A stretch of 22,496 bases of DNA from a virus: the UHGV virus genome UHGV-1752853, one strand, 5' to 3'. Made by a program: the position numbers and the translations under genes. Each line of letters starts with the position of its first letter. Position 1 is the stretch's first letter. Below, in pieces: positions 5,758 to 22,496 of this stretch. The notes beneath the pieces are model-generated. The model was not told the origin of the DNA and ran no database searches. It was given only the letters and a program-made list of their open reading frames with translations.

Positions 5758-6093
5758 AAACCGGTAAGGGATAATCCGCTTAAGATTTACCGGTGGCGAA
5801 GAGAGCCAAAGCATCAAATTACGCGATTACCTGTAGCAGTACAATATATTGTTTACGTTTTCTTATTAATTCCAGATGTATGTCTGTGCGCCGTGTCGTC
5901 GCCGTATTCCCGTATTAACAGAGACCGCAGCCCGACGGGGAGACTCTTCTGCGCGAGTGTGCGGGAATAATCAGAAACGATATACACCGGGTTTTACCGC
6001 GTGAACGGGACGCGGGTTTACCCCACATGGTCGTCCATCCGGTGCGATGGTGGAAGAAACCGGAACACTCAGTACTTGCATGGAAGGAATAAA

Positions 6094-6118
6094 AAAAGCC
6101 GCAGGTGGTATGCGGCAT
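6094..6118 (-). terminator. Minus-strand rho-independent terminator
   Basis: GCCGCA/TGCGGC 6-bp stem (6100-6118 on +) with a 7-nt loop; the A7 run at 6093-6099 becomes a U-run on the minus strand. Confidence 0.5.
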
Positions 6119-6121
6119 AAA

Positions 6122-6211
6122 ATGGCACGAATTGAAGAGTGGTTTATCTTAGCGTTTATATTTTTATCTTATATCTGTGCTGTTGTTCAATTCGTTATTT
6201 TTGTCGGCTGA
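6122..6211 (+). CDS. Candidate 29-aa hydrophobic peptide (possible type I toxin-like ORF)
   Basis: ATG 6122 to TGA 6209-6211; MARIEEWFILAFIFLSYICAVVQFVIFVG; no clear SD; start lies immediately 3' of the hairpin; speculative. Confidence 0.2.
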   Translation: MARIEEWFILAFIFLSYICAVVQFVIFVG

Positions 6212-6226
6212 TTCATCTGCTTATTT

Positions 6227-6275
6227 TTACGTGACTGCTGATTTTTCACGTAATGCATCAGATTAATTTAATCTG
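6227..6275. promoter_or_regulatory. Two adjacent dyad-symmetric elements (candidate operator sites or minus-strand promoter region)
   Basis: TTACGTGA-N11-TCACGTAA at 6227-6253 and perfect palindrome CAGATTAA-T-TTAATCTG at 6259-6275, in an AT-rich intergenic region. Confidence 0.3.
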
Positions 6276-6478
6276 CAGTTGTTATCATTTTTTCGGATAT
6301 TCCGTAATATTGAAGCATTTAATTATATTTATGTACATATTCAGGATGTGTGATTTTACATAACAGTGACAGTAGCTTCCGTTGCAATATGTGGCATGGT
6401 GGCAGATGTTATCACAAGTAATAATGACTCACGGTAAATTTTCATGCTAAATGTTAAATGATTATCTGTGAAATAATA

Positions 6479-6601
6479 ATGGATACCAGAGTTATTTTAG
6501 TCTTTTTTCCTGCTCTTTTATTTGTATCTACGGGGTCTTTCGATGAGATGGAACGTTACAAGGCTGCAAAGGAACATACGAATGGAGATGTGAGAAAATG
6601 A
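6479..6601 (+). CDS. Small ORF (40 aa) with hydrophobic N-terminus, stop overlapping the next start (ATGA)
   Basis: ATG 6479; MDTRVILVFFPALLFVSTGSFDEMERYKAAKEHTNGDVRK; TGA 6599-6601 overlaps ATG 6598 of the downstream ORF. Confidence 0.3.
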   Translation: MDTRVILVFFPALLFVSTGSFDEMERYKAAKEHTNGDVRK

Positions 6602-6846
6602 AATTCCAGCTGGCAAGAATTTATAAAGGTGATCTGTTTGCATGTTTTGGTATTGCAGTAAACGGTGAATTGCTGGAAGGACAATTGTCTTCCCGGATTA
6701 ATACTGAGGCGATAAACTTTCCTTCCGTTACGATCGAATTCCGACTGACCTGTGAAGAAATTGGAAACAGTATTGACATTAACGTGAACGAGATCCTGAC
6801 GAGTAAACACACGGATGAAAGATACCGGAGTTTGCCTCGTCAGTAG
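6598..6846 (+). CDS. Hypothetical acidic protein (82 aa), unrecognised
   Basis: ORF track; preferred over the overlapping minus-strand ORF 6556-6849, which has only a TTG start and no Met anywhere. Confidence 0.4.
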   Translation: MKFQLARIYKGDLFACFGIAVNGELLEGQLSSRINTEAINFPSVTIEFRLTCEEIGNSIDINVNEILTSKHTDERYRSLPRQ

Positions 6847-6858
6847 CAAACGGAGCGT

Positions 6859-7047
6859 TTATTTCATATTGGTTGATGAGAGCATTTTTCTGTCCGCACT
6901 CAGCCTCCGGCGACAGGCCTCAATGACCCATGCTGAAAAATTTCCCGACTCTTTTTTGTCAAGAGCGATATTGATCTGCTCAATCATATGATTCGGAAAA
7001 CGGATATTGCGGGTTGTGGTTCTGCGGGTCCGGTTTTTCGATGACAT
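6859..7047 (-). CDS. Ribbon-helix-helix (Arc/MetJ-like) DNA-binding protein (62 aa)
   Basis: AAGGA SD with 7-nt spacer before ATG on the minus strand; sequence RNIRFPNHMIEQINIALDKKESGNFSAWVIEACRRRL fits a beta-strand/helix/helix pattern resembling P22 Arc. Confidence 0.5.
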   Translation of the reverse strand: MSSKNRTRRTTTRNIRFPNHMIEQINIALDKKESGNFSAWVIEACRRRLSADRKMLSSTNMK

Positions 7048-7087
7048 TGTCTGTTCCTTTATTTCTGCATCCTGACGGAGATTTTAC

Positions 7088-7453
7088 ATGGCGGCATTAC
7101 CTGTACTCCAGAGCCGAATTAAACCCCTGAGCACCCGACGAATGAATGTCCTGCAGGGTGAAGACCGACGCATCAGTGGTCGGGCAAGAGTGAATCTCAA
7201 ACGCAGGATCTGGCAGAGGGATGGCGGTCGCTGTTGTCTTTGTGGGCGTGTTGCTGACCTGTGTGACAGTGAACTCGATCACCGCATTGCTCTTCAGTTC
7301 GGTGGTGGTAATGAGGAGGCCAATCTCTGGACACTCTGTACGGAATGCCATCGTCTGAAGTCAGCCCGTGAGATGGCGAGCGGTATGCCGGATCCGAGGT
7401 TGCCGGAAGTGTCGGGTAGTGCCGACAGAACCGACGACATCATAGGGCTCTGA
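7088..7453 (+). CDS. HNH endonuclease (terminase/cos-associated, HK97 gp74-like position)
   Basis: HNH/zinc motif CCLCGR...ELDHRIALQFGG...NLWTLCTECHRLKS; sits directly upstream of the cos-like region and small terminase. Confidence 0.85.
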   Translation: MAALPVLQSRIKPLSTRRMNVLQGEDRRISGRARVNLKRRIWQRDGGRCCLCGRVADLCDSELDHRIALQFGGGNEEANLWTLCTECHRLKSAREMASGMPDPRLPEVSGSADRTDDIIGL

Positions 7454-7738
7454 CCAGACCCCGGGGGGGAGCTTACGGCGAAAAAAAACGATCGCCACGG
7501 ACACCGCGCCCCCCCTCACGCAGAGAAAAAATTCCCGTTCAGAAGTTATAAACATGTTTATACCATACATGGCGCTTTTCTGCATTTTTTACTTTTAAAT
7601 TCATTGTGTTGCTGGAGAAAAATGTTTATACCCTGTCCCCGCAAAATGTTTACAGGGCAGCGGTAAACATTTCCCCTGTTGCATCCATTCTCACCGGGGT
7701 GATTGCTGAAATTTTTCTGTGTTTTTCCGGAGGGAGGA
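7454..7738. other. Putative cos region: G7/C7 dyad (candidate cosN) plus repeated ATGTTTAYA elements (candidate terminase-binding sites)
   Basis: GGGGGGG at 7463-7469 and CCCCCCC at 7509-7515 in inverted context; ATGTTTATACC at 7554-7564 and 7622-7632, ATGTTTACAGGG at 7646-7657, inverted GTAAACAT at 7663-7670; lies between the HNH and TerS genes. Confidence 0.5.
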
Positions 7739-8317
7739 ATGCTGACGACGCAAAAACGAAAATTTGCGCTGGCGCTGATGTCGGGTAAAAACCGAACGGC
7801 CTCCGCCATTGAAGCAGGCTATTCAGAAAAGTCAGCCAGGTGTAAAGGTTCACAACTGGCAAAAGATCCGGAAGTGCTCGCTTTTATTGCCCGTAAAAAA
7901 TGCGAGATGGTGGAGGTGGATGAGGTTCCTGTTTACCGGAAGAAAAAAACACAGACAGAGGATAACAACCGGTGCTCAGGGACAACAGAAAAGAAAACAC
8001 AGACCGCACCAGAGCCGGATAACGATAAAAGCCTGCCGCCAGTGCCTGCCGGTATACCAGGCGTTGATTACATGGAGGACGGCCTTCCTGACCCGGTGAA
8101 AGCCATGGGCAGGATCCTGGTGGAAAACCTCAGCGTTGATCCGAAACTGGCACTGGATGCGGCCTGGCGACTGGCGCAGTTCACGCACCACAAAAAAGGG
8201 GATGCCGGTAAAAAATCGGCAAAAGGTGAGGCGGCAAAAAAAGCGGCTAACCGTTTTGCCACACCTGCGCCGCCGCCCCGTCTGGTGGTGAATAACAATC
8301 GTGAGGGAAATGAATGA
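7739..8317 (+). CDS. Terminase small subunit, P27 family
   Basis: GGGAGGA RBS then ATG 7739; N-terminal KRKFALALMSGKNRTASAIEAGYSEKSA helix-turn-helix pattern typical of P27-family TerS; 4-nt overlap with TerL. Confidence 0.75.
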   Translation: MLTTQKRKFALALMSGKNRTASAIEAGYSEKSARCKGSQLAKDPEVLAFIARKKCEMVEVDEVPVYRKKKTQTEDNNRCSGTTEKKTQTAPEPDNDKSLPPVPAGIPGVDYMEDGLPDPVKAMGRILVENLSVDPKLALDAAWRLAQFTHHKKGDAGKKSAKGEAAKKAANRFATPAPPPRLVVNNNREGNE

Positions 8318-9966
8318 CACCTGTATGGAGCACGGCATGTCCGGACTGGGCGGCGCGTCTGAAAAAAGGGCAGTCGATAATTCCGGCCCCCATTTATCCG
8401 GACCAGGCCGCGCAGGCACTGGCGATTTTTAAACAACTGCGGATTGTTGATGCACCGGGCAGTCCGGCGTTCGGGCAGGCCTGTGCCCCGTGGGTGTTTG
8501 ACCTGGTGGCGGCCCTGTTTGGCTCCTGTGATGCGCAGACCGGTGTACGCCATATCAAGGAAGTGTTCATTCTGATACCCAAGAAAAACTCCAAATCCAC
8601 GCTGGCCGCCGGGATCATGATGACGGCGCTGTTACTGAACTGGCGGCAGGCGGCGGGCTACACCATTCTGGCACCGACCGTGGAGGTTGCCACCAATGCC
8701 TTCAATCCCGCCCGCGATATGGTTAAGTGGGATGATGATCTGGATGATCTCTGTCAGGTGCAGACGCATATCCGTACCATCACCCACAGGATGACGGACA
8801 CCACCCTGAAGGTGGTGGCTGCGGATCCGAATACAGTGTCCGGTATCAAGTCTGTGGGGACACTGATTGATGAACTGTGGCTGTTTGGCAAGCAGTACAA
8901 GGCAGAGGACATGTTACGTGAAGCCATTGGCGGACTTGCCTCCCGTCCGGAAGGGTTTGTGGTGTATACGACCACACAGTCGAATGAGCCACCCGCCGGG
9001 GTGTTCAGGCAGAAGCTGCAGTATGCCCGTGATGTCCGTGACGGAAAAATTCATGATCCGCACTTTCTGCCGGTGATTTTTGAGCATCCGCCGGAGATGG
9101 TGGCCAGCGGGGAGCACCTGCTGATGGAGAACCTTGCCATGGTGAACCCGAATCTGGGGTATTCCGTGGATGAATCCTTTCAATTCCGAAAGGCAAAGGA
9201 GACGGGTGAAGAGGCTTTTCTCGGATTTATGGCAAAACACGCCAATGTGGAAATCGGTCTTGCCCTGCGCTCTGACCGGTGGGCAGGAGCGGATTTCTGG
9301 GAGCAGCAGGGTCGGAAGATAAGTTTTGAGGATATCCTGGCACGTTCTGAAGTGATCACTGTGGGCATTGACGGTGGAGGGCTTGACGATCTGCTGGGGA
9401 TGTATGTCATCGGCAGGGACCGGGAGAGCCGTGAATGGCTGGGCTGGGGGCATGCCTGGGCGCATGAAACCGCGATGGACAGACGAAAGAGCGAGGCATC
9501 CCGTTTCCAGGATTTTGTGGCCTGTGGCGATATGACCCTTGTCCGGCGGGTCGGGGATGACACGGCGGAGGTGGCGGAATATGTCAGGCGTATCCATGAG
9601 GCCGGGTTACTTGATCGTATCGGCATCGATCCGTCCGGCGTCGGACAAATTCTGGATGCGCTGGTGGAGGCCGGCATTCCGGAAGAGGGGGTGGCGGGGA
9701 TAAGCCAGGGCTGGAAACTGGGCGGTGCCATCAAAACCGCGGAACGCAAACTGGCGGAAGGTGTGCTGGTGCATGGCTGGCAGCCGATGATGGCCTGGTG
9801 TGTGGGGAATGCCAGGGTGGAGCCCAGAGGTAACGCCATTCTCATCACAAAACAGGCCAGCGGGAAGGGGAAGATAGATCCGCTGATGGCGCTGTTCAAT
9901 GCGGTATCCCTGATGTCGCTGAATCCGGAGCCGAAAAAGAAAGAGTACAGGGCTTTTTTCATATGA
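8314..9966 (+). CDS. Terminase large subunit
   Basis: 550 aa; Walker A-like ILIPKKNSKSTLAAG; length and position follow TerS. Confidence 0.85.
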   Translation: MTPVWSTACPDWAARLKKGQSIIPAPIYPDQAAQALAIFKQLRIVDAPGSPAFGQACAPWVFDLVAALFGSCDAQTGVRHIKEVFILIPKKNSKSTLAAGIMMTALLLNWRQAAGYTILAPTVEVATNAFNPARDMVKWDDDLDDLCQVQTHIRTITHRMTDTTLKVVAADPNTVSGIKSVGTLIDELWLFGKQYKAEDMLREAIGGLASRPEGFVVYTTTQSNEPPAGVFRQKLQYARDVRDGKIHDPHFLPVIFEHPPEMVASGEHLLMENLAMVNPNLGYSVDESFQFRKAKETGEEAFLGFMAKHANVEIGLALRSDRWAGADFWEQQGRKISFEDILARSEVITVGIDGGGLDDLLGMYVIGRDRESREWLGWGHAWAHETAMDRRKSEASRFQDFVACGDMTLVRRVGDDTAEVAEYVRRIHEAGLLDRIGIDPSGVGQILDALVEAGIPEEGVAGISQGWKLGGAIKTAERKLAEGVLVHGWQPMMAWCVGNARVEPRGNAILITKQASGKGKIDPLMALFNAVSLMSLNPEPKKKEYRAFFI

Positions 9967-9992
9967 ACCCTGTTCACCCTGTAACCATCACG

Positions 9993-10013
9993 AACCGCTG
10001 CGGCGGTTTTTTT
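9993..10013 (+). terminator. Terminator-like hairpin between the terminase and the protease-capsid gene
   Basis: AACCGC-TGCG-GCGGTT stem-loop followed by TTTTTTTATTTT. Confidence 0.4.
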
Positions 10014-10030
10014 ATTTTCAGGAGGCTGAT

Positions 10031-11971
10031 GTGACGCTTAAACGGGCCTGTTCCCTGCTGACGGTGAAATCCTTCAGTGAGGATGAACGGGTGATCACCG
10101 GGATTGCATCAACGCCTTCTCCGGACAGGGATGGTGACATCCTGGAGCCGGAGGGGGCTGAATTCGGCAGTACAATCCCGTTTCTCTGGCAGCATGACCA
10201 TTCCCGCCCGGTGGGACAGTGTACGGTACGCCGGGTCAGAGAGGGGCTGGAAATCACGGCGGCACTGGTGAAGCCCGAACCGGGGATGCCGTCACAGCTG
10301 GCAGCCCGGCTGGATGAAGCCTGGGCCGCCATAAAAACCGGGCTGGTCAGGGGGCTTTCAGTGGGCTTCCGTGCCCATGAATACACTTTTCTTGACGGGG
10401 GTGGCCTGCATTTTCTGCGCTGGGAGATGATGGAGGTGTCTGCCGTCACCGTGCCCGCGAATGCGGAATGCACTATTCAGACCATTAAATCTTACGACCG
10501 ACCGCTTTCTGCCGCGTCCGGCAACCGGAAACCGGTGGTGAAAATCGCATCTTCTGCCGGCGTTCCGGCACAGTCAGCAACCGTTTTTCAGAAGGAAAAG
10601 ACAGGCATGAATATCGGTGAACAGATCAAAAGTTTCGAAAACAAACGTGCGGCACTGGTGGCAGCCCTGGATGACATCATGACGAAGGCCGCGAATGAGG
10701 GACGTACGCTGGATGCGGGCGAAGAGGAGAGCTACGACAATACGTCGGCGGAAATCAAGGCCGTGAATGCACACCTGAAACGTCTGCGTGACATGGAGGC
10801 GAACCTGGCCGCCACGGCCACGCCGGTGGAAAAGACGGCCGATGGCATGGTGAAAAGTGTGCAGCCGGCAGCGCCCGGCATCATCCGCGTGGAGCAGAAA
10901 CTGGATAAAGGGATCGGCTTTGCCCGTTTCGCCAAATCACTGGCGGCAGCCCGGGGTGTCCGTTCTGAGGCGCTGGAAGTGGCGCGTCGCCAGTATCCGG
11001 ATGACAGCCGCCTGCATCACGTCCTGAAATCTGCCATTGGTGCGGGCTCCACCACCGATCCCTCATGGGCAGGTAATCTGGTGGAGTATCAGGACTACGC
11101 GCAGGATTTTATTGCGTTCCTGCGTCCGCAGACCATCATCGGGCGTTTCGGGCAGGGGGGGCTACCGGCACTTCGCCAGGTGCCGTTCAATATCCGCGTG
11201 CATGCTCAGGTCTCCGGCGGGTCGGCCAGCTGGGTGGGGCAGGGTAAGGCAAAACCGCTGACAAAATTTGATTTTGAGTCCATCACATTTGGTCATGCGA
11301 AGGTGGCAGCCATTGCGGTGCTGACCGACGAGCTGATCCGTTTTGCCAGTCCGGCCGCAGATGCGCTGGTGCGTAATGCGCTGGCGGAGGCGGTGATAGC
11401 CCGTCTGGACACGGATTTTGTGGATCCCGGCAAGGCGGAGGTGGCAAATATTTCTCCTGCGTCGATCACCAGCGGTATCACTGCGGTGGCGTCAACAGGG
11501 ATCCCGGAAAGTGATGCGGAGGCGGCCTTCGGTCAGTTTGTGAAGGCGAACCTGCAGCCGACCGGTGCGGTGTGGCTGATGTCCAGCACGAATGCCCTGG
11601 CTCTGTCCATGCGCAAAAACGCGCTGGGCCAGAAGGAATATCCGGACATGACGCTGCTGGGCGGCACCTTCTGTGGCCTGCCGGTGATTGTCTCCCAGTA
11701 TGTGGGCAGTCAGCTGATCCTGGTGAACGCGCCGGATATTTATCTGGCGGATGACGGGGGGGGCGCGGTGGATATGTCCACCGAGGCCTCACTGGAGATG
11801 CAGGGTGAACCGACAGGGGACAGCACCACGCCGGTGCCGGTTGAACTGGTTTCCATGTTCCAGACCAACAGCGTGGCCATTCGTGCGGAACGCTGGATCA
11901 ACTGGCGTCGTCGCCGTACGGCAGCGGTGGCCGTGATTTCCGGGGTGAATTACGGCGCGGCGGCAGGCTGA
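10031..11971 (+). CDS. Fused HK97-family prohead protease and major capsid protein (with coiled-coil delta/scaffold segment)
   Basis: GTG start with AGGAGG RBS; N-terminal prohead-protease pattern (ITGIAS...GDILEPEGAEFG...PFLWQHD...LSVGF...VTVPAN), then a coiled-coil segment, then an HK97 MCP-like C-terminal half. Confidence 0.8.
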   Translation: MTLKRACSLLTVKSFSEDERVITGIASTPSPDRDGDILEPEGAEFGSTIPFLWQHDHSRPVGQCTVRRVREGLEITAALVKPEPGMPSQLAARLDEAWAAIKTGLVRGLSVGFRAHEYTFLDGGGLHFLRWEMMEVSAVTVPANAECTIQTIKSYDRPLSAASGNRKPVVKIASSAGVPAQSATVFQKEKTGMNIGEQIKSFENKRAALVAALDDIMTKAANEGRTLDAGEEESYDNTSAEIKAVNAHLKRLRDMEANLAATATPVEKTADGMVKSVQPAAPGIIRVEQKLDKGIGFARFAKSLAAARGVRSEALEVARRQYPDDSRLHHVLKSAIGAGSTTDPSWAGNLVEYQDYAQDFIAFLRPQTIIGRFGQGGLPALRQVPFNIRVHAQVSGGSASWVGQGKAKPLTKFDFESITFGHAKVAAIAVLTDELIRFASPAADALVRNALAEAVIARLDTDFVDPGKAEVANISPASITSGITAVASTGIPESDAEAAFGQFVKANLQPTGAVWLMSSTNALALSMRKNALGQKEYPDMTLLGGTFCGLPVIVSQYVGSQLILVNAPDIYLADDGGGAVDMSTEASLEMQGEPTGDSTTPVPVELVSMFQTNSVAIRAERWINWRRRRTAAVAVISGVNYGAAAG

Positions 11972-11996
11972 TGCGCTGACAGGGAGGGCGGGGCGG

Positions 11997-12263
11997 ATGA
12001 TGCCCCGCCGTACTGAGATGACCAGAATCAGATATCTGCAGATGACACATGACGCTGCGCCGGGGGATGTCCGTGATGTGGACGGGCGCTGCGCCCGTGT
12101 GCTTGTCCTGCTGGGGAAGGCGGAATATCTGCCCGCCGTGAAGCGTCCGCCCCGAAAACCACGCAGCCGGAGTACAGAACATGTGGAACCCGTTCAGGAA
12201 AAAATCGATCCCGCAACCGGTGAGTCAGCAGGGATGGAAGACCCTGCTGAGGTTTACCGGTGA
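11997..12263 (+). CDS. Hypothetical ORF (88 aa) overlapping the portal start in another frame
   Basis: ORF track; GGGAGGGCGGGG upstream; overlaps the portal frame by about 83 nt; may be a real small gene or a frameshifted N-terminus. Confidence 0.2.
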   Translation: MMPRRTEMTRIRYLQMTHDAAPGDVRDVDGRCARVLVLLGKAEYLPAVKRPPRKPRSRSTEHVEPVQEKIDPATGESAGMEDPAEVYR

Positions 12264-13530
12264 ATCTTATCCCGGAGCCTGGCAACGGGACGACGGAATA
12301 CATCAGGACACGGTACTGGCTTACCATGCCGTGTTTGCCTGTATCTCCCTGATTGCCGGTGATATTGCAAAAATGCGTCCCCGGGTCATGCACCGTGACC
12401 GGCACGGTGTGCCCTCTGAGGTCCGTACCGGCAGTGCGGCTGCGATATACCGCAGGCCCAACGCTTTTCAGAACCGTATTCAGTTTTTTGAACACTGGAT
12501 GAGTTCAAAGCTGTGTCACGGTAACACGGTGGCCCTGAAAATACGCAACAGCCGGGGAGAGACGGAGGCCCTGCGTCTGCTTGACTGGCACAGGGTGATG
12601 CCCCTGGTGGCGGATGACGGCTCCGTGTTTTATCAGATTTCACCCGACCGGATGGCGGGTCTGGGCAGTACGGTGACGGTACCGGCCCGGGAAATTATTC
12701 ATGACCGGTTTAACTGTTTTTTTCATCCGCTTGTGGGGCTGTCTCCCGTGTATGCGGCCGGGCTGGCAGCGATGAACGGACACTGGATCCAGCATAATTC
12801 GGCGTATTTTTTCCGCAACGGTGGCCGTCCCGGCGGAATTATTGAAGTGCCAGGCAGCATCACGACAGAAAACGCCCTTGAGCTGAAAGAGGCCTGGGAA
12901 CGTGGCTACAGCGGAGAGAATGCCGGGCGCACGGCCGTGCTGAGTGACGGGGCGAAGTATAACCCCGTGTCGGTGTCTGCCGTGGATGCGCAGACCGTGG
13001 AGCAGCTGAAGATGACGGCAGAAATTATCTGTTCGGTCTTCCATGTGCCGGCTTACAAGGCCGGGATGGGCAGTCTGCCCTCGTCAGACAACATTGAGGC
13101 GCTGGAGCAGCAGTATTACTCGCAGTGTCTCCAGACACTCATTGAGTCTGCTGAACTGCTGCTGGATGAGGCTTTTGGTCTGGAGGGTACATATTCGACG
13201 GAGTTTGACATCAGTGCCCTGCTGCGTATGGACACTGAACGCCGTATCAGAACGCTGGGCGAGGGGGTGAAAAACACCCTTCTCACGCCGAACGAGGCCC
13301 GCAGACGGGAAAATCTGCCGCCGCTGCCCGGGGGGGATGCGCTGTACCTGCAGCAGCAGAACTACAGTCTGGAGGCCCTTGCACGGCGTGATGCATCCGC
13401 AGATCCGTTTGCTTCCGGTAAGCAGACCAGCAGGCAGGAAGAGACGGCGTCTGACGTCGGGAGTAAGGCCATCAGTGAAACAGAGCGCGATGCCGTGAAG
13501 GCGATGTTCAGGGGGATAATGAGAAAATGA
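12181..13530 (+). CDS. Portal protein, HK97 family
   Basis: 449 aa; LAYHAVFACISLIAGDIA and downstream motifs resemble HK97-family portals. Confidence 0.8.
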   Translation: MWNPFRKKSIPQPVSQQGWKTLLRFTGESYPGAWQRDDGIHQDTVLAYHAVFACISLIAGDIAKMRPRVMHRDRHGVPSEVRTGSAAAIYRRPNAFQNRIQFFEHWMSSKLCHGNTVALKIRNSRGETEALRLLDWHRVMPLVADDGSVFYQISPDRMAGLGSTVTVPAREIIHDRFNCFFHPLVGLSPVYAAGLAAMNGHWIQHNSAYFFRNGGRPGGIIEVPGSITTENALELKEAWERGYSGENAGRTAVLSDGAKYNPVSVSAVDAQTVEQLKMTAEIICSVFHVPAYKAGMGSLPSSDNIEALEQQYYSQCLQTLIESAELLLDEAFGLEGTYSTEFDISALLRMDTERRIRTLGEGVKNTLLTPNEARRRENLPPLPGGDALYLQQQNYSLEALARRDASADPFASGKQTSRQEETASDVGSKAISETERDAVKAMFRGIMRK

Positions 13531-14606
13531 CGGAAAGGGAGTTATCCATTATCCGTGCGCTGGGTGAGGAGTTCCGGGCTGTGCTGGCGGACTTACAGCG
13601 CACATTTGAGGAGAAGATGGCCGCGCAGTCGCAGGCATTTGAAGAGAAGCTGGCGTCCCTGTCTGCGGTGCAGCAGAAAAGCGTGACGGCTGATGATATG
13701 CGTCCTGTGCTGCAGACGATGGTGGATGAGGCCGTGGGCACCATTCCGGTACCGCGCGACGGGCGTGATTACGATCCGGACGTGCTGCAGCAGGCGGTGC
13801 GGGAGGAGGTGCAGAAGGCAGTGTCAGAAATTCCGGTGCCTCAGGACGGTAAAAGTGTCACTGCGGATGATGTACGTCCGATGCTCGAGCAAATGGTGAA
13901 GAATGCAATGAGCCGGATACCGGTACCGCGCGACGGCCGCGATTACGATCCGGATGTACTGCAGAAGGCGGTGAATGACGCAGTCGCTAAAATTCCGGTA
14001 CCTGCAGACGGTAAAAGTATCACGCCTGACGATGTACAGCCCATGCTGTCGCAGATGGTGAATGACGCAGTGAGTCAGATCCCGGCACCGCGCGACGGCA
14101 GGAGTGTGACGGTTGACGATGTGCGTCCGGTGCTGCTGGCGATGGTGGATGAGGCCGTGAGCCGGTTACCTGTTCCGCAGGACGGGCGTGATGCTGCGGC
14201 CCTGGAAATACTGCCCGGTATTGATGAACAGAAACATTATCCGCGGGGGACTTATGCAACCCATCACGGCGGCCTGTGGCGTGCGTACGAAAAAACCTGC
14301 GGCATGCGCGGCTGGGAATGTCTTGTTGACGGCGTTGCCGGCGTGGACATTCAGCAGGACGGTGCGCGATGTTTCACCGTCACGCTGACGCGGTCCGGTG
14401 GCGAAAGGAACGTGAAGTCTTTCGCACTTCCGGTCATGCTTTACCGGGGCGTGTTTGCAGAGGGTGCAGAATACCAGCCGGGCGACATCGTCACCTGGGG
14501 GGGCTCACTGTGGCACTGCAATGCGCTGACGACGGACAGGCCCGGTGAAACCGGGACAACCGGCTGGACGCTGGCGGTGAAAAAAGGGCGGGATCTGAGG
14601 GGCTGA
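13527..14606 (+). CDS. Head-module protein with tandem ~40-aa repeats and C-terminal carbohydrate-binding-like (CBM5/12-like) motifs
   Basis: Repeats of IPVPRDGRDYDPDVLQ.AV... and IPVP.DGKS.T.DDV.PML.QMV across about 13680-14190; C-terminal YQPGDIVTWGGSLWHCNALTTDRPGE resembles the chitin-binding-domain consensus. Confidence 0.55.
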   Translation: MTERELSIIRALGEEFRAVLADLQRTFEEKMAAQSQAFEEKLASLSAVQQKSVTADDMRPVLQTMVDEAVGTIPVPRDGRDYDPDVLQQAVREEVQKAVSEIPVPQDGKSVTADDVRPMLEQMVKNAMSRIPVPRDGRDYDPDVLQKAVNDAVAKIPVPADGKSITPDDVQPMLSQMVNDAVSQIPAPRDGRSVTVDDVRPVLLAMVDEAVSRLPVPQDGRDAAALEILPGIDEQKHYPRGTYATHHGGLWRAYEKTCGMRGWECLVDGVAGVDIQQDGARCFTVTLTRSGGERNVKSFALPVMLYRGVFAEGAEYQPGDIVTWGGSLWHCNALTTDRPGETGTTGWTLAVKKGRDLRG

Positions 14607-14935
14607 TGATGACAGAACTGGTCACGCCGGAAGCGGCGAAAATGCATCTGCGCATTGATGACAGTGAGGGGGAGGCGGATCTGCTGCTGAAAATTCAGGG
14701 GAGCAGCGCAGTCCTGCTTTCCTGGCTGCAGGAGGGCAGGCGTCTGGTGGTGAACGATGATGGTGAACTGATCGAGGGTGAGGCGCTGAGCCGGGTACAG
14801 ACGGCCCTGCTGTTCCTGCTGGGATATCTGGACAGGAACCGGGGCGGGGAGGAAGAGGAGAAGCTGATGCGCGGGGAACTGCCCCTGTCGGTCACGATGC
14901 TGATCCATGATCTCCGTAAGCCTGTCATTGTGTGA
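14606..14935 (+). CDS. Head-tail connector (gp6-like) protein
   Basis: N-terminal VTPEAAKMHLRIDDSEGEADLL resembles the gp6-like connector family; start overlaps the upstream stop. Confidence 0.65.
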   Translation: MMTELVTPEAAKMHLRIDDSEGEADLLLKIQGSSAVLLSWLQEGRRLVVNDDGELIEGEALSRVQTALLFLLGYLDRNRGGEEEEKLMRGELPLSVTMLIHDLRKPVIV

Positions 14936-15039
14936 CAGCGTCAGAAAGTCCCCTCATTTTTACTTTTCGGGGGCGTGTATGGCATGTGCGGGCTGCGTCA
15001 GGCAGCGGGAATGGGTGAAACAGTGGACGAGGATAGCGT

Positions 15040-15231
15040 ATGAACGGGCAACAGGAAAACGAACTCATCAGTGTACTGAGGGCGCTGGCAGCCGCCCAGA
15101 TAAAACAGGCGGAGGCCATCAACAGGCTGGCGGAGGCGGATGAGACCCTGTACTCACTCATCGCCCGCACGCTGGCGGACGAGACGGAGGAAGAGCCGGA
15201 GACGTATCTTGACGGAACGCCACGGAGGTGA
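15040..15231 (+). CDS. Small hypothetical protein (63 aa)
   Basis: ORF track; GAGGA RBS 7 nt upstream; acidic C-terminus. Confidence 0.4.
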   Translation: MNGQQENELISVLRALAAAQIKQAEAINRLAEADETLYSLIARTLADETEEEPETYLDGTPRR

Positions 15232-15233
15232 AC

Positions 15234-15566
15234 ATGGAGTTTTCATCACTGCGCCACCGTATTACGCTGCAGCGACGGACGGGTGTCCAGTCACCGGTGA
15301 CCGGTGCCATGGAATACCACTGGTCGGATGTGGCGACGCTGTGGGCACAGGTGGTTCCGGTCTCCGTCAGGGAATTCATTGCCGCCCAGGCGGTGAACAA
15401 TGAAATTACCGTCAGGATGGTGATCCGCTGGCGGGCGGATATCAGTGACAGGGATCGGGTGTTGTTTCGCGGGAAGCTGTACAGCATTGAAGGTATTCTT
15501 CCCGATCCGGTCAGCGGCAGGGAATACCTGACGCTGGCCTGCAGTGAGGGAGTGAAGGATGGCTGA
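15234..15566 (+). CDS. Head closure / head-tail adaptor protein
   Basis: GGAGG RBS then ATG 15234; SSLRHRITLQRR... resembles head-tail adaptor proteins; order after the connector. Confidence 0.65.
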   Translation: MEFSSLRHRITLQRRTGVQSPVTGAMEYHWSDVATLWAQVVPVSVREFIAAQAVNNEITVRMVIRWRADISDRDRVLFRGKLYSIEGILPDPVSGREYLTLACSEGVKDG

Positions 15567-16113
15567 TGGCATTACGATGAAAATGGAGGGACTGGATGCC
15601 CTTGCAGGAAAACTGTCCGCGCTGTCAGGTGTAGCGGAGAGTAAGGCCGGGCGCTTTGCCCTGCGGAAGGCGGCGAATGTGATTCGTGACCGTGCAAGGG
15701 CAAATGCGGCCCGAGTGGATGATCCACAGACGCCGGAGGCCATACACCAGAATATCGTGGCCCGGTTCAGCAACAAAAGATACCGGCAGACCGGGGAGCT
15801 GGCTTTTCGGATCGGCGTGCTGGGTGGCGCCCGCCGGACGCTGAGTGCGGCAGCTGCGCGGAAGGCCGGACAACGGCAGAAACGTCAGGGAACCGCCACG
15901 CTGGCGTCGCAGGGAGAGCTTCCCGGCTCAGGAAAAGGTAACCCGGGCGGGGATACCTGGTACTGGCGTTTTCTGGAGTTCGGCACGGAGCATGCTGAAG
16001 CCAGATCGTTCATGCGGCCTGCCATGAATGGTGCGGATGCAGAAGTCGTCAGCACGTTTGTGAATGAATTTGAGAAAGCGGTTGACCGGGCCATCAGGAG
16101 GATGTCGCGATGA
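15559..16113 (+). CDS. HK97 gp10-like tail component protein
   Basis: Size, position and GRFALRKAANVIRDRARANAA / WYWRFLEFGTEHAEARSFMRPA motifs. Confidence 0.6.
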   Translation: MADGITMKMEGLDALAGKLSALSGVAESKAGRFALRKAANVIRDRARANAARVDDPQTPEAIHQNIVARFSNKRYRQTGELAFRIGVLGGARRTLSAAAARKAGQRQKRQGTATLASQGELPGSGKGNPGGDTWYWRFLEFGTEHAEARSFMRPAMNGADAEVVSTFVNEFEKAVDRAIRRMSR

Positions 16114-16478
16114 TGATTAATCCGCTGTTCAGCGTCTGTGCCTCCTGTCCGGAGGTGACCGCACTGATTGGCAGTGATCCGGTCAGGCTGTATGCCTTTG
16201 GCAGCCAGGACGATGAGGTGATTTATCCGTACGTGACCTGGCAGAACACCGGCGGTGAGCCGGCGCTTTACCTGGGGAGCCGTCCTGATATTGACCGCTG
16301 GGCGGTGCAGATTGACGTCTGGGCCTCCACAGCGGATGAGGCGCTTGCCGTCGCGACGGCACTGCGTGATGCGATTGAAACGCAGGCCTGCATCACCCGC
16401 TGGGGCGGCCAGAGCAGGGATCCGGAAACGCGCAGTTACCGGTTCTCTTTTGATGCGGACTGGCTGGTCAGCCGTTAA
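16110..16478 (+). CDS. Tail completion protein (DUF3168-like)
   Basis: Position and size; ATGA overlap with the upstream gene. Confidence 0.5.
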   Translation: MMINPLFSVCASCPEVTALIGSDPVRLYAFGSQDDEVIYPYVTWQNTGGEPALYLGSRPDIDRWAVQIDVWASTADEALAVATALRDAIETQACITRWGGQSRDPETRSYRFSFDADWLVSR

Positions 16479-16500
16479 TGTCCGTGATGTTCGTACAGTC

Positions 16501-16529
16501 AGCCCGCCATTGTGCGGGTTTCTTTTTTT
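16501..16529 (+). terminator. Terminator/attenuator-like hairpin upstream of the major tail gene
   Basis: AGCCCGC-CATTGT-GCGGGTT stem followed by TCTTTTTTTC. Confidence 0.35.
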
Positions 16530-16545
16530 CAGGAGAAAATGAACC

Positions 16546-17064
16546 ATGTCAGTTGTCACCCAGGGCACGCAGTTCTATGTGCTCAATAACGGCAAAGTCA
16601 GTGAAATTGAATGTATCACGTCGTTTTCCCCGGGCAGTAACCCGGCCGACCAGATAGAGGATACCTGTCTGAGTGAGACCAGCACGCGGACCTATAAAAA
16701 GGGGCTGCGCACGCCGGGTGAGGCCACGGTGGGGCTCAATGCCGATCCGGCCAATGCCAGCCATATCATGCTCAGTAATCTTGCTGAGTCCAGTGACCAG
16801 ACGGTGCTGACCTTTGCCGTGGGCTGGTCCGACGGTACGGAGGCCCCCACAGCCTCCACGGAGGCCGATGCCGTAAATGGTATGGCCCTGCCGGACACCC
16901 GGACCTGGTATGTGTTCCAGGGCTACGTGTCGGATTTTCCGTTTGACTTTCAGGCTAACAGCGTGGTGCAGACATCAGCCACCATTCAGCGTTCCGGTCA
17001 GGGGGTGTGGGTGCCGAAACAGCAGACGGTTACTCCCGGTCCGGCAGCCGCCGTGACGACCTGA
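16546..17064 (+). CDS. Major tail protein
   Basis: AGGAG RBS; 172 aa; position immediately upstream of the G/GT chaperone pair. Confidence 0.65.
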
Positions 17065-17109
17065 TGCGTGTTCAGGACAACGTGTCCGATTTTCAGAGAG
17101 GAAAAAACC

Positions 17110-17448
17110 ATGCAGTTAACCAGAGAAAACCTTCAGAACCCCTGCCTGTTTGCCGGGCGTCCGGTCCGCAGGACCATCACATGGAAACAGGGGGGCAGGG
17201 AACTGACCGCCACCACCTGGATCCGTCCGCGGAGTTATCAGGATATTGTTCTGGAAACAGAGGCGGGAAAGGAGAACACGATAGCCGTGCGTATTGCCCG
17301 TTCGGTCTGTGATGAGCAGGGTGAACCGGTGTTCACGGTGGCTGACATCACCGGAGAGGCCTGTCCGGAGCGGGGGCCCCTGGATGCAGGACTGACCGTC
17401 GCCCTGCTGCAGGCAATAAGTGATGTTTATCTGGGAAAGACGGACTGA
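17110..17448 (+). CDS. Tail assembly chaperone G
   Basis: AGAGAGGA RBS then ATG 17110; canonical lambda-type slippery heptamer G GGA AAG at 17433-17439 near the 3' end. Confidence 0.75.
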   Translation: MQLTRENLQNPCLFAGRPVRRTITWKQGGRELTATTWIRPRSYQDIVLETEAGKENTIAVRIARSVCDEQGEPVFTVADITGEACPERGPLDAGLTVALLQAISDVYLGKTD

Positions 17449-17744
17449 GTCCGGAGGACGAGTTCTGGTGTGAGCTGGTGCTGAACGGCATTGGTGGCCG
17501 TACCATTGCGGAGGCGTAGGCACGCCTGAGTTTTCCGGAATACCGTCTCTGGCTGCGGTACCGGCAGAAATACGGCAGTCTGAACCCGATGCTCAGGGCG
17601 GAATGGTGTGCCGGACTGCTGGCCAGCGTGACGGCCAATATGTGGCGAAGCTCACAGATTCCGCCGTTCCGTCTGACGGATTTCACGCCACATATTGATG
17701 AACCTCCCGTTTCGCTGGAAGAGGCCATGGAATGGTGGGATTAG
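17433..17744 (+). pseudogene. T-domain (-1 frameshift extension of G) interrupted by an in-frame TAG at 17517-17519
   Basis: The -1 frame from the slippery site reads GKDGLSPEDEFWCELVLNGIGGRTIAEA-stop, then continues ARLSFPEYRLWLRYRQKYGSLNPMLRAEWCAGLLASVTANMWRS...EEAMEWWD to TAG 17742-17744; pattern resembles phage minor tail protein T. Confidence 0.5.
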
Positions 17745-17834
17745 AAATGGACAGGATGATAAAGATCAGTTAAGCATGCAAATGCTGAACTAAAAATAAT
17801 CGTTTTTATGTAATGCATGGAGTAATGACACACT

Positions 17835-18443
17835 ATGACAGCAAATAAAACATATCTCGCGATCCTGGCGTTCTGTTTATTTGCCTCAGCGCAGTCTTTC
17901 GCTGCTGCTGGCGACAGCACCCTGTCGGCGGCTTATGCCGGGATTTATACAGGGAAATATCTGCAGGATATCGGGCGAAGTGACCGGCTTGCGGAAGGCG
18001 TTAACGTCAAATACCGTTATGAAGCAGATGATGCCTGGGGGGTTATCGGCGCGTTGACGTATGCCAGAGGAACTCCGGCTTTTTCGGTGACGGGGATTAC
18101 TGATCTCGGTGTGGCAGAAGGGGATGAGAAGACCAGACTGGAATACCTGAGTATTCAGGCCGGCCCTGCGTACCGGTTTAATGAATTTTTCAGTGCATAT
18201 GCAATGACCGGGGTAGCCACCACAAAATATGACGGCAGTGCGCATTTGTATGGAGTTGATGCTTCGGGGAAAAGTTTTTCCTGGTACGGAAAGGATTCGG
18301 AGAGAAAAACGAACCTGGCCTACAGTGTGGGACTGCAGTTTAATCCGCTGAAAGAACTGGCGGTGGATGTGTCATTTGAAGGTTCGGGTTTTGACAGCTG
18401 GAAAACATCGGGAATTAATGCCGGTCTTGGCTGGAGCTTCTGA
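17835..18443 (+). CDS. Ail/Lom/OmpX-family outer membrane beta-barrel protein (moron)
   Basis: Signal peptide MTANKTYLAILAFCLFASAQSFAAAG; alternating amphipathic strands; C-terminal GLGWSF ending in Phe; AT-rich upstream region; followed by terminators. Confidence 0.7.
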   Translation: MTANKTYLAILAFCLFASAQSFAAAGDSTLSAAYAGIYTGKYLQDIGRSDRLAEGVNVKYRYEADDAWGVIGALTYARGTPAFSVTGITDLGVAEGDEKTRLEYLSIQAGPAYRFNEFFSAYAMTGVATTKYDGSAHLYGVDASGKSFSWYGKDSERKTNLAYSVGLQFNPLKELAVDVSFEGSGFDSWKTSGINAGLGWSF

Positions 18444-18478
18444 CGGCACTCGTCGATATCGTAACAGGACGTGTACAG

Positions 18479-18534
18479 GGTCACCTCAGGGTGGCCTTTC
18501 TTTTTTTGTCACACCGCCGGCGGGCGTTTTTTTT
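18479..18534 (+). terminator. Tandem intrinsic terminators downstream of the Ail/Lom-like gene
   Basis: GGTCACC-TCAG-GGTGGCC followed by TTTCTTTTTTT (18479-18508); CGCC-GGCG-GGCG followed by T8 (18513-18534). Confidence 0.5.
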
Positions 18535-18546
18535 CGGGAGGCACCG

Positions 18547-21213
18547 ATGGCAGGAAAATCCCTCGGAACGCTGACGCTGGATCTGATTGCCAGGACCGCC
18601 GGTTTTGCGTCAGGGATGAGCCAGGCAGAACGGAGTTCCGCGAAATGGCGTAAGAAAATTGTGGCGGATGTGGATGCGGTGGCCACCGCCTTTGCGGCTG
18701 CTTCTTCCGCAGCGGTGGCCACGGCCGCAGGCGTGGGAGCGTATGGTTTTAATCTGCTGAAGAGCTCGTCGTCACAGATTGCGGAAGCAAAACGGCTTTC
18801 GGATGCACTGGGCATGTCCACACAGGCACTGCTGTCCTGGCAGTATGCAGCCGGAAAGGCGGGGGTGTCCGGAGAGCAGATCGCCGACATTTTTAAGGAT
18901 CTCGGTGACAAAATTGGTGATGCGGCGCTGAACAAATCCGGGGAAGCGGTGGATGCCCTGGATGCGCTGGGGCTGTCGGCGGAAAAACTGAAGTGGGTCT
19001 CACCGGATGAGCAGCTGCTGGCCATCAGCGATGCGCTGAAAAAAATCGGTACCACGTCAGAGAAAACGACGATCCTTGAGAGTCTGGGTAACGACCTGTC
19101 CAGAATGCTGCCACTGCTGGAGCAGGGCGGTGAAAAACTCCGTCAGTACATGGCGGCAGCGCAGACGTTCGGTGTGGCCCCTGATGATGCGGATATTGAG
19201 AAGCTGGTCAGGACGAACGCCCTGTTTGAGGACATGGCGTCTCAGGTGGATGGTGTGAAAATCGCGCTGGCCACCGGGCTGGCGGATGTCGACCTGTCCG
19301 GCGTGCAGAATGCCATCACGGAGATCGGTGAGACGCTCAGGGACCCGCAGGTTCTGCAGGGGCTGACAAATCTGGTGCAGGGGGCGGCAGATCTGGCCGG
19401 GTGGCTGATAAAGGTGGCGGCTGCGGCCGGTAATATTGCGGCCCTGACCCGGCAGGGGATAGCACAGAATGCCGGTGGTGCCCTGAAAACGGAGGCCAGT
19501 GCGGCGGATATCCGGGCCCGTATAGCGGAGCTTGAGAAACAGCAGCAGGAAAACGTTTATCCGGTAAAACGGTGGATGAATGTTGCCGGACGGATGCTGC
19601 AGCGAAAGGACGGCAGTCCGGAGGATGAGCTGGCGCTGCTGAAAGGGCGTCTCCCCCTGGCAGAGAAGCTGGACAGGGAGGTCAGGCCGGCCATTGACCT
19701 TGCTCTTCCCGCAACAGAGAAGACCGTGAATACCGGGACGATCAGGCAGGACTATCGTCTGGCACCGGGGCAGAGTAACGGCAAAACCTCTGCCTCTCAG
19801 GCGGACAGGGATGCGAAGAAGGTCCTGAACAGCTTCAGGCAGATGGAGGACTCGTATCAGCGGCAGATTGCGCTGGCTGACACCACAGGGGAACGGACAA
19901 AGGCGCTCACGGAGCTGGAGAAACTTCAGTACGAGATGGCCTCAGGAAAGCTCACGAATCTGAATGAGGCGCAGAAAACCCGGCTGACGCAGCTGGCGAC
20001 AGAGCTGGACCAGCTGAATGCACAGAAAAAGGCCATGGAGGAGCAGAAGCAGCTTCAGGCCTTCACGGCCGGCCAGCAGGCGCAGACCCGTAACGCACAG
20101 GACATGCTGGACACGGAATTTGTCGGGGCAGGTGAGGGGGAGCAGCTACGGTCGCGGATACGTGAGCTGCTGGACATTCAGCGTTCGTATTATGACCAGC
20201 TGGAGACGCTTCGGCAGCGTCAGGAAAGCGGGGATATCACCCGGACGCTGTATGAAGGGGAGACGGCGGTCCTGAAGCAGGAGTTCGAAAAACGGCTCCG
20301 GATGCAGCAGGACTATTACCGCAGACTGGATGCGCTGAATGATGACTGGCTGAGCGGGGCCGGTGATGCGCTGAAGGATTACGTGACGGAGGCGGACAAC
20401 AATGCCGCGATGGCGAAGAGCGCGGTGACCAGTGTGCTGGGCACCACGGAAAACAGCGTGTCGGCGATGCTGGATGACATCATCAGGGGAACCAAAAGTG
20501 CCGGTGATGCCGTGAAAGATGTGGTGGAGGACCTGGGCAATGCCATCATCACCGAACTGGAGAACATCGCGGCGAAGAAAATCGTGGCCGGCCTTTTCGG
20601 CGGGCTGGCGGGAGAGAGCAACATCGCCGGAAGCGGCGATCTGCTTTCGCTGCTGACGGGTGCAGGCAGTAACGGTGACAGCAGCGCGGGCAGTGCGGTG
20701 GCAGGGGCGACGTCTTCCCTGACGGACAGTGACATGCTGTCCGGGCTGAAGGCGGTACTGAACACCTCCCTGACGGATGAACTGGGCTCGCTGCTGTCGT
20801 CGCTGGGCAGCTCGCTGTCGGGGATGCTGTCCGGTCTGTCCGGGAGCGGAGGCGGTTTTCTGTCCCTGCTGGGGATGGCGCATGACGGTATCGACAGTGT
20901 GCCGGCCACGGGGACCTGGCTGCTGGAAAAAGGAGAACGGGTTATTTCCGGCAGAACATCGAAAAAACTGGATGCGACCCTGAGCGCCGTCCATTCGGCG
21001 GCGGGGAACCGTTCAGGTGGACAGAATTTTTCATATTCTCCGGTCATTAATGTGAACGGCGATCCGGATGCGCGGACGCTGAAAATGCTGGAGCAGGCGG
21101 TGCAGCAGGGGGCGAAACGGGGATATCAGATGGTGGCTGAGAGTCTGAGCACCGGCAGTGGTGCCGTGCATTCTGCGGTGAACACCCGTTACGCCAGACG
21201 CAGGAGCGGATGA
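18547..21213 (+). CDS. Tail tape measure protein
   Basis: 888 aa from ATG 18547 (the track ORF starts upstream at 18367, within the terminators); long alpha-helical/coiled-coil composition; Gly/Ser-rich C-terminal region. Confidence 0.85.
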   Translation: MAGKSLGTLTLDLIARTAGFASGMSQAERSSAKWRKKIVADVDAVATAFAAASSAAVATAAGVGAYGFNLLKSSSSQIAEAKRLSDALGMSTQALLSWQYAAGKAGVSGEQIADIFKDLGDKIGDAALNKSGEAVDALDALGLSAEKLKWVSPDEQLLAISDALKKIGTTSEKTTILESLGNDLSRMLPLLEQGGEKLRQYMAAAQTFGVAPDDADIEKLVRTNALFEDMASQVDGVKIALATGLADVDLSGVQNAITEIGETLRDPQVLQGLTNLVQGAADLAGWLIKVAAAAGNIAALTRQGIAQNAGGALKTEASAADIRARIAELEKQQQENVYPVKRWMNVAGRMLQRKDGSPEDELALLKGRLPLAEKLDREVRPAIDLALPATEKTVNTGTIRQDYRLAPGQSNGKTSASQADRDAKKVLNSFRQMEDSYQRQIALADTTGERTKALTELEKLQYEMASGKLTNLNEAQKTRLTQLATELDQLNAQKKAMEEQKQLQAFTAGQQAQTRNAQDMLDTEFVGAGEGEQLRSRIRELLDIQRSYYDQLETLRQRQESGDITRTLYEGETAVLKQEFEKRLRMQQDYYRRLDALNDDWLSGAGDALKDYVTEADNNAAMAKSAVTSVLGTTENSVSAMLDDIIRGTKSAGDAVKDVVEDLGNAIITELENIAAKKIVAGLFGGLAGESNIAGSGDLLSLLTGAGSNGDSSAGSAVAGATSSLTDSDMLSGLKAVLNTSLTDELGSLLSSLGSSLSGMLSGLSGSGGGFLSLLGMAHDGIDSVPATGTWLLEKGERVISGRTSKKLDATLSAVHSAAGNRSGGQNFSYSPVINVNGDPDARTLKMLEQAVQQGAKRGYQMVAESLSTGSGAVHSAVNTRYARRRSG

Positions 21214-21228
21214 GGAGAATGATGGCGA

Positions 21229-21642
21229 ATGACAATAACAACGTCGGTTAACTGGCCGGAGAGTCTTCCGCTGCCGCTGGCTGACGGATACACACAGACT
21301 CCGGTGAGTCCGGTCATGCGGACGGAGCTTGGCAGCGGACGGGCCATCATGCGCCGCCGTTTTGTCTCCACGCCGGTGATGATTTCCGTCAGCTGGCTGC
21401 TGAGTGAGGCGCAGGCCGGGACATTTGAGGATTTTTATTACAACACGCTGGCAGACGGGGTGCGGTGGTTCCGTATTGCCCTGCGTCTGCCGGGCAAGGC
21501 AGATGATGAAACGGTGGCAGCCCGTTTCACGGATATCTGGGATGCAGTCACCCTGACGGGTGGGGTGTGGTGGGAATATTCTGCCACTCTGGAAATACGG
21601 GAGCGGTATGTGGTGACCCGGGACAGGGGAGGCATGTCATGA
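21229..21642 (+). CDS. Minor tail protein (post-TMP, distal tail), family uncertain
   Basis: GAGGAG RBS; 137 aa; position immediately after TMP; contains a DGYTQ motif reminiscent of lambda M-like proteins. Confidence 0.45.
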   Translation: MTITTSVNWPESLPLPLADGYTQTPVSPVMRTELGSGRAIMRRRFVSTPVMISVSWLLSEAQAGTFEDFYYNTLADGVRWFRIALRLPGKADDETVAARFTDIWDAVTLTGGVWWEYSATLEIRERYVVTRDRGGMS

Positions 21643-22157
21643 CATCGCAGGCACTCAGCAGACTGTATGCCAGCGGCGGTGAGGAGGTGCTGCTCCACAC
21701 CCTTGAGATTGACACCGGCGGAACGTCGATATACCGCCGCCTGTGGCTGGTACAGTCCTTTGAGGATATCACGGCCATGGTGGACGGCGCTCAGAGAACA
21801 TTCACCGCCTGCGCGATGGAGCTTTCGCTGCCGCCGTCAGACAGTGAGGGCACACAGTCCGTGCAGTTCACGGTGTGTAATATTGACGGTTCTGTACAGC
21901 GTTATATCCGGGAAGCGTCTGACTGGTACTCAGGGGATAACCGGGCCGGTACCTTCCCGTGCCTGCGGTACCGGGGATATCTTGCCTCTGACCTGACTGC
22001 ACCGGCAGCGGGCCCCTTTGAGTTTTACATCAACACGGTGGCCTGTACCTCACGGAGCGCCACCATCACTGCCACGTATGCGGACATACTGAACACATCA
22101 TGGCCGCGCGGGCGTTACAAATCCACAGACTATCCGGGACTGATTTACGCATCATGA
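21639..22157 (+). CDS. Minor tail protein (post-TMP), family uncertain
   Basis: GGGAGG RBS; ATGA overlap with the upstream gene; 172 aa. Confidence 0.45.
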   Translation: MTSQALSRLYASGGEEVLLHTLEIDTGGTSIYRRLWLVQSFEDITAMVDGAQRTFTACAMELSLPPSDSEGTQSVQFTVCNIDGSVQRYIREASDWYSGDNRAGTFPCLRYRGYLASDLTAPAAGPFEFYINTVACTSRSATITATYADILNTSWPRGRYKSTDYPGLIYAS

Positions 22158-22411
22158 CAGACACGTCTTTTCTGCTGACCGCACGTTACACCCCGCGCGG
22201 GCGGCAGTTTCCCCGCGTTGACTGCTGGGGGTATGTGCTGGAGGTGCGCAGACAGCTGGGCTTCCCGCCGCTGCCTGAACTGGCTGGGGTGTTCCGGGAT
22301 GAGGCAGACACTGCAGCACGCCGGGTGATGCCGCAGCTGACGACGTGTGAGGCTCAGGAGGGGGCGCTGGCGTTGTGTTTTGTGTCCGGTCTGCTGACGC
22401 ATGTGGGGTGA
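22154..22411 (+). pseudogene. NlpC/P60-type phage tail/cell-wall peptidase gene, 3'-truncated by IS insertion
   Basis: ARYTPRGRQFPRVDCWGYVLEVRRQLG matches the N-terminal catalytic-Cys region of phage NlpC/P60 peptidases; the ORF ends in the TGA that is the first triplet of the IS terminal repeat, after only 85 codons. Confidence 0.5.
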
Positions 22412-22496
22412 ACCGCCCCGGGAATCCTGGAGACTAAACTTCCTGAGAAAGAGGTAAACAGGATGACTAAAAATACTCGTTTTTCCCCCGAAGTCC
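22409..22496 (+). mobile_element. Left end of an IS3-family insertion sequence (IS629-like), continuing beyond the window
   Basis: Terminal sequence TGAACCGCCCCGGGAATCCTGGAGACTAAACT followed by orfA start MTKNTRFSPEV..., recognised from memory as IS629/IS1203-type. Confidence 0.7.
22463..22496 (+). CDS. IS3-family transposase OrfA, N-terminal fragment (partial at window edge)
   Basis: ATG 22463 with AAGAGG RBS; MTKNTRFSPEV. Confidence 0.7.
   Translation, partial: MTKNTRFSPEV

Follow-up and report, generated by a model that had tools for sequence, protein, structure and literature searches.

The tail assembly chaperone cassette of a lambdoid prophage was found to carry an amber codon within the -1 frame that encodes the T domain of the G/GT pair, and a second tail gene further downstream on the same DNA is interrupted by an insertion sequence. 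With a probability of about 0.9, the locus represents the G/GT cassette of an HK022/HK97-type lambdoid prophage, probably of Escherichia, which has lost its GT product by this amber mutation and a further tail gene by the IS insertion, and which is undergoing decay. The analysis covers the virus genome UHGV-1752853, a stretch of 22,496 nucleotides called the window in the following, and the features on which the argument is built are collected in Table 1. The start of the tape measure gene given there was taken from gene calls on near-identical contigs and from the presence of a GGGAGG ribosome-binding site upstream of it.

Table 1. Features of the tail gene region, numbered from the first nucleotide of the window
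Feature	Position	Strand	Remarks
Major tail tube gene, upstream of G	16546..17064	+	PF16460, 9e-67
Gene G (tail assembly chaperone)	17110..17448	+	112 aa, intact; PF16459 (Phage_TAC_13), PHROG 1749
Slippery heptamer G GGA AAG, -1 programmed frameshift	17433..17439	+	in phase with G; conserved in homologues
T-domain frame (-1 relative to G), pseudogene	17439..17744	+	100 codons in relatives; natural stop TAG 17742-17744; PF06223, PHROG 337
Premature amber TAG (from CAG, Gln)	17517..17519	+	C-to-T transition at 17517, directly 3' of GIGGRTIAEA
Tape measure gene, downstream of G/GT	18547..21213	+	888 aa; PF09718
Minor tail gene, cut to 85 aa	22154..22411	+	124 aa in intact relatives (L044 13626-14000)
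Left end of IS3-family element, inside the minor tail gene	22409..22496	+	window ends within the element

Direct reading of gene G gave an uninterrupted frame of 112 codons, starting with the ATG at 17110 and ending with the TGA at 17446-17448. Its product matches the Phage_TAC_13 family PF16459 (6.8e-24, 84.5 bits, with a cut-off of 28.8 bits) and the tail assembly chaperones of PHROG 1749 (4e-24), and a protein identical to it is listed in 79 blocks of a public assembly collection. The heptamer GGGAAAG near the end of G is positioned in the phase of this gene (CUG GGA AAG) and thus conforms to the X XXY YYZ pattern, followed by a spacer of 6 nt (ACGGAC), such that the stop codon starts 7 nt past the heptamer end. 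Counted irrespective of phase and place, GGGAAAG occurs no more often in the window than expected (2 copies as compared to 3.4), and hence the case for a programmed frameshift rests on phase, position and conservation. Indeed, the position and the phase of the G/T junction heptamer are conserved among 34 homologous loci, with GGGAAAG in 31 of them, GGGAAAA in two and AAAAAAG in one, and GGGAAAG is also present at this junction in both E. coli relatives (O158 and A34). The slippery sequence of lambda G/GT is likewise GGGAAAG (PMC3296357, Table 1). The other copy in the window is located within G at 17265-17271 and shares the phase of the functional heptamer; slippage by -1 there would lead to termination after about 14 codons, and the E. 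coli O158 relative has this copy too.

The -1 frame, when read from 17439, gives DGLSPEDEFWCELVLNGIGGRTIAEA up to the TAG at T-frame codon 27, which would be codon 137 of the fusion. Past this amber, 74 open and homologous codons (ARLSFPEYRLW...EEAMEWWD) follow until the natural terminator of the frame. With the stop replaced by Gln, the T frame matches PF06223 (Phage_tail_T, Minor tail protein T) with 8e-9 and 36.2 bits, at a cut-off of 25.9 bits, and PHROG 337 with 2e-20, and the PF06223 match spans T-frame residues 31-98, wholly downstream of the TAG. By alignment, the T frame is 98% identical to the intact T of the contig L044 and 63% identical to HK022 gp14. The motif GIGGRTIAEA that immediately precedes the amber is invariant in homologues, and the truncated product retains the invariant EFWCELV..GIGGRTIAEA motif and, with it, the 26 residues of T that are most conserved. 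In the initial annotation, made from the sequence without database searches, a slippery heptamer had been placed 7 nt ahead of the G stop and a TAG in a T-like frame that runs on for 74 codons to 17744; the coordinates of both proved to be right, and the identity of the T domain is now confirmed by PF06223 and PHROG 337. The locus hence combines an upstream chaperone ORF, a conserved in-phase heptamer, T-domain homology in the -1 frame and the lambda-type position of the pair between the tail tube and tape measure genes with a -1 frame that is interrupted at codon 27 of 100. It is a member of the G/GT type by descent and a pseudogene as to the GT product.

Relatives at several distances reveal the codon from which the amber was derived. 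CAG occupies the site in 12 near-identical metagenome or genome contigs (L033-L035, L037-L042, L044, L046 and L048), and the closest relatives, with identity above 99.9%, differ at the site only by C versus T at 17517. Over 13,880 nt, the closest contig, L044 (SRR8849263), differs from the window by four SNPs (at 14488, 17517 (C/T), 17730 and 18527) and one in-frame 9-bp indel. The codon is CAG in E. coli O158:H23 and AAG in E. coli A34. Gln is encoded at the site in 29 of 30 loci of GTDB representative genomes and Lys in the remaining one, in a set that is biased towards Gln by one of its six search patterns (GRTIAEAQ); it contains no close relative, its best match being 70% identical (Franconibacter), and was used only for conservation at the site. 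In the cultured phages, the residue at this position is Arg in HK022, Lys in D3, and Gln in KpF5 and vB_EcoS-716R3. A sense codon is thus present in 48 of 48 homologous loci outside the TAG lineage (12 contigs, 30 GTDB loci, two E. coli and four phages). The presence of CAG in near-identical relatives and the lack of a stop in any of these 48 loci indicate that the amber arose by a single C-to-T transition, converting CAG to TAG. This bears out the nonsense mutation postulated in the initial annotation, according to which a stop at the same place in intact homologous phages would speak against it: no such stop was observed in the 48 loci, including those of the functional phages HK022, D3 and KpF5.

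A second lesion is located at the right end of the window, which follows L044 up to 22408 and diverges thereafter, reading TGAACCGCCCCGGG... 3' of this position. In L044, the 124-aa gene is uninterrupted and is followed by a 916-aa J-like gene, and the intact 124-aa protein exhibits a weak match to PHROG 329 (minor tail protein). When 22409-22496 is extended by 64 nt from L045, the resulting 152 nt (L045 14575-14726) show 100% identity to an element annotated as IS3 family transposase with programmed frameshift, which occurs in multiple copies in E. coli and was found at 23,486 places in 3,644 of 5,426 genomes. Judged by this identity, the right-end sequence is an IS3-family insertion, of which 88 nt, from one end only, lie within the window. 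The truncated junction protein is present in six contigs. The TAG contigs L045 and L047 contain the IS junction, the contig that is the source of L036 stops 28 nt inside the IS, just where L047 does, and contigs of several assemblies break at this multi-copy repeat, while the CAG contigs that reach the junction site (L044 and L046) read through it without any insertion. The IS insertion represents a further, independent block in the tail-tip genes, which is probably polar. The suggestion of a defective prophage, made at the outset from the amber codon, hence gains support from the independent disruption, on these contigs, of a tail gene further downstream by an IS3-family element.

Three further assemblies contain the TAG allele. 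L036 (Logan assembly of ERR528744) is identical to the window over 6.3 kb and L045 (ENA ERZ27294087) over 14.7 kb with the TAG included, and L047 (Logan assembly of SRR31374167) contains the TAG plus three further SNPs as compared to the window. The repeated occurrence of TAG, in one case together with three extra SNPs, thus establishes it as a heritable allele that has been sampled repeatedly. The private coding changes of the TAG lineage comprise one nonsense and two nonsynonymous changes (I321 versus T in a 359-aa gene adjoining the portal gene, and K98E in T), to which L047 adds V91I in T. Two of the six other changes lie in the 222 nt 3' of the TAG; such changes downstream of the TAG fit relaxed constraint, although they are too few for a firm argument. 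In a sister lineage (identity above 99.5%; L033, L037, L038, L039 and L041), TCG has changed to TAG at window positions 14888-14890, which cuts the head-tail adaptor from 109 to 94 aa and gives this prophage family another amber allele of independent origin. For three contigs of this lineage, L033, L039 and L041 (samples CUNN23-1, HOLS23-1 and RAYM19-1), the prophage segment measures exactly 12,556 bp in each, which suggests that one strain, or one segment delimited by repeats, is shared by the samples. An exact-pattern scan of the JGI metagenome collection revealed one contig, with CAG, which is the same as L037, and neither allele turned up when IMG/VR viral contigs were scanned likewise.

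The consequences of the amber can be predicted from the lambda system, where the tape measure protein is the binding partner of gpG and of the G portion of gpGT, the major tail (tube) protein is bound or recruited by the T domain, which starts the polymerisation of this protein, and gpG and gpGT are both needed, at a ratio of about 30:1 (PMC5009743; PMC3296357). By analogy, most ribosomes on an intact cassette would complete G and a few per cent would slip by -1 at G GGA AAG, generating a fusion of about 210 aa whose T domain would bind the tail tube protein and whose G part would bind the tape measure. On the amber allele, the frameshifted ribosomes would halt after 136 aa, and the resulting product would lack 74 T residues out of 100 and with them the Pfam T domain in its entirety, with the synthesis of G unaffected. 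With G normal and functional GT absent, assembly of the tail shaft should fail if GT acts here as it does in lambda. With the amber in the T frame and the IS in the downstream minor tail gene, the prophage has most likely lost the ability to form tails on its own and is decaying by mutation. Beyond the IS, the other tail genes could still be intact, and GT could be provided in trans by another lambdoid prophage residing in the same host.

Other explanations of the TAG have been weighed against this loss of GT. That it is a sequencing or assembly error for a true CAG is highly improbable: a one-base difference from very close relatives, with metagenome assemblies as sources, would be in line with such an error, but the T at 17517 recurs in three other assemblies obtained under different accessions and with different assemblers, one of which has three other SNPs of its own, and the TAG co-segregates with the IS junction and two other private SNPs. 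The alternative of an error, which had been left open initially, is hence discarded. Translation of a genuine amber as Gln, either by a host suppressor or by a near-cognate tRNA-Gln, would yield some wild-type GT and leave the phage functional, perhaps with a lower GT:G ratio. This is regarded as quite unlikely, and its narrower version, in which UAG is partly decoded so as to furnish the exact wild-type GT at a reduced level, as very unlikely. With Gln as the ancestral residue, insertion of Gln by a supE-type suppressor would restore the wild-type protein, and some coliforms isolated from nature have been reported to carry amber suppressors; a literature search on natural amber suppressors in E. 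coli gave nothing usable. None of the 22 0-frame plus-strand genes in the window uses TAG as terminator (17 TGA and five TAA), and the sister lineage has its own in-frame amber in the head-tail adaptor, such that the lack of TAG terminators, the second amber allele and the persistence of both alleles across samples could hint at a host that tolerates or suppresses UAG. However, TAG constitutes about 8% of stop codons in E. coli, and at this usage its absence from 22 genes has a probability of about 0.16, which is not significant; moreover, the natural terminator of the T frame is itself TAG, and the amber of the sister lineage would require Ser and not Gln. No tRNA gene was detected in the window by ARAGORN, and basal readthrough multiplied by a few-per-cent frameshift would leave negligible GT. 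Both substitutions 3' of the TAG are nonsynonymous, and as a further tail gene of these contigs is disrupted by an IS, restoration of GT would not rescue the prophage. If true, readthrough would be a sign of natural amber suppression in a gut Escherichia lineage.

A recoded genetic code, with TAG as a normal sense codon for Gln as in some gut phages, would account for a TAG at a position that is Gln in relatives, but its probability is practically negligible: this TAG is the only one in frame, the 22 other genes are full-length under code 11 without internal stops, and near-identical relatives use CAG. Furthermore, the window encodes no suppressor tRNA with a CUA anticodon, which sets it apart from recoded or suppressing phages, and the setting is that of an enterobacterial lambdoid prophage. 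It is also hardly credible that the allele is adaptive, with a function for the truncated G-T' of 136 aa or for a T fragment initiated, for example, at the ATG at 17589 (51 aa). The retention of EFWCELV..GIGGRTIAEA in the truncated product and the persistence of the TAG allele in several samples would agree with a functional fragment, but no Shine-Dalgarno-like sequence is present 5' of this ATG, gene callers predict no gene in the post-amber stretch on TAG contigs, and persistence is accounted for by vertical inheritance of the prophage in a bacterial lineage. The T domain of lambda, moreover, acts when tethered to G in the fusion (PMC5009743).

With loss of GT by a nonsense mutation as the preferred reading, the appropriate annotation of the T ORF is that of a pseudogene within a G/GT frameshift cassette, rather than that of an absent gene or of a small ORF in its own right, and the prophage is to be scored as defective on account of two independent tail-gene lesions. 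The TAG allele offers a clean and datable instance of early prophage decay, with the nearest intact allele only four SNPs away over 13.9 kb and the defective one having reached several metagenome samples. Beyond annotation, its importance is slight.

The window as a whole is a lambdoid late region. Besides the tail genes, it contains genes for a NanS-p-type esterase, a lysozyme, the Rz lysis protein, an HNH endonuclease, TerS and TerL and, in the head and connector module, an HK97-like protease-capsid fusion, a portal, a head-tail connector, and head-closure and tail-completion proteins, with HK97 gp10-like and gp17-like proteins among those encoded. The esterase (DUF1737, SASA and DUF6645; 218-2215) is located upstream of the lysis cassette and shows about 82% identity to many E. 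coli prophages. Such esterases are typically encoded downstream of stx in Stx-converting prophages and their lambdoid relatives. The portal gene (12181-13530) is followed by a 359-aa ORF (13527-14606) that matches C-terminal parts of portal-protein PHROGs and shows a weak CBM_5_12 match; the portal and the homologue of this ORF in E. coli O158 are both annotated as portal protein by RefSeq, and the two ORFs may represent a portal that is split or extended. An outer-membrane protein of the Ail/Lom family is encoded at 17835-18443 (with flanks, 17745-18546; PF06316, 4e-29), between T and the tape measure gene. Its gene has a lower GC content, 47-50% as compared to about 59% in the flanks, and a terminator-like hairpin at 18477-18498 follows it; a promoter scan between T and this gene revealed no sigma-70 consensus. 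The same slot is occupied by the classic HK97 gp15 moron (PMC3594210), and by another small gene in Klebsiella phage KpF5 and Escherichia phage vB_EcoS-716R3. Among 5,426 complete E. coli genomes, the head-tail module was found in one, that of O158:H23 CFIAFB20140388, with 93% identity over 93% of window positions 8300-22408. A megablast of 17050-17800 against 50,697 phage records gave no match, and cultured relatives were found by protein-level search only. The host is probably Escherichia, as judged by the identity of about 82-93% to E. coli prophages and by the 100% identical IS.

Comparison with known systems places the cassette close to lambda G/GT in gene position, heptamer and T family, by which this likeness was judged. 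In lambda, the pair occupies the same slot between the major tail and tape measure genes with the same GGGAAAG near the end of G (PMC3296357; PMC5009743), and the -1 ORF likewise encodes a PF06223 minor tail protein T domain, whereas G of the window belongs to a different TAC Pfam family (PF16459) and its T frame is interrupted by the amber. The closest T domains of cultured phages are those of HK022 (gp13/gp14) and of the Klebsiella phages Kp4882-1 and KpF5, with 62-64% identity by tblastn (62% for HK022). HK022 gp14 is annotated as a frameshift product, the HK022 group has GGGAAAG at the same position, and the head genes of the window are HK97-like, in keeping with the HK97/HK022 group. In contrast to the window with its TAG, the T frame of these phages is open and encodes R or Q at the site, and the G ORF of HK022 runs 144 nt beyond the heptamer as compared to 6 nt in the window. 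The prophage of E. coli O158:H23 CFIAFB20140388 (NZ_CP076709.1, positions 1-13572) exhibits the same G/T layout with CAG at the site, but has neither the amber nor an Ail/Lom gene in the slot that separates T from the tape measure gene, and its 124-aa tail gene is intact. Defective or cryptic lambdoid prophages of E. coli are marked by point mutations and IS elements, and the window, a 22.5-kb part of a prophage of lambdoid type with a NanS-p-type esterase and a lysis cassette, similarly combines a nonsense mutation in a late gene with an IS3-family insertion in a tail gene. Decay of lambdoid prophages by nonsense mutation and IS insertion is a well-known phenomenon, encountered here in a prophage module that is itself rare.
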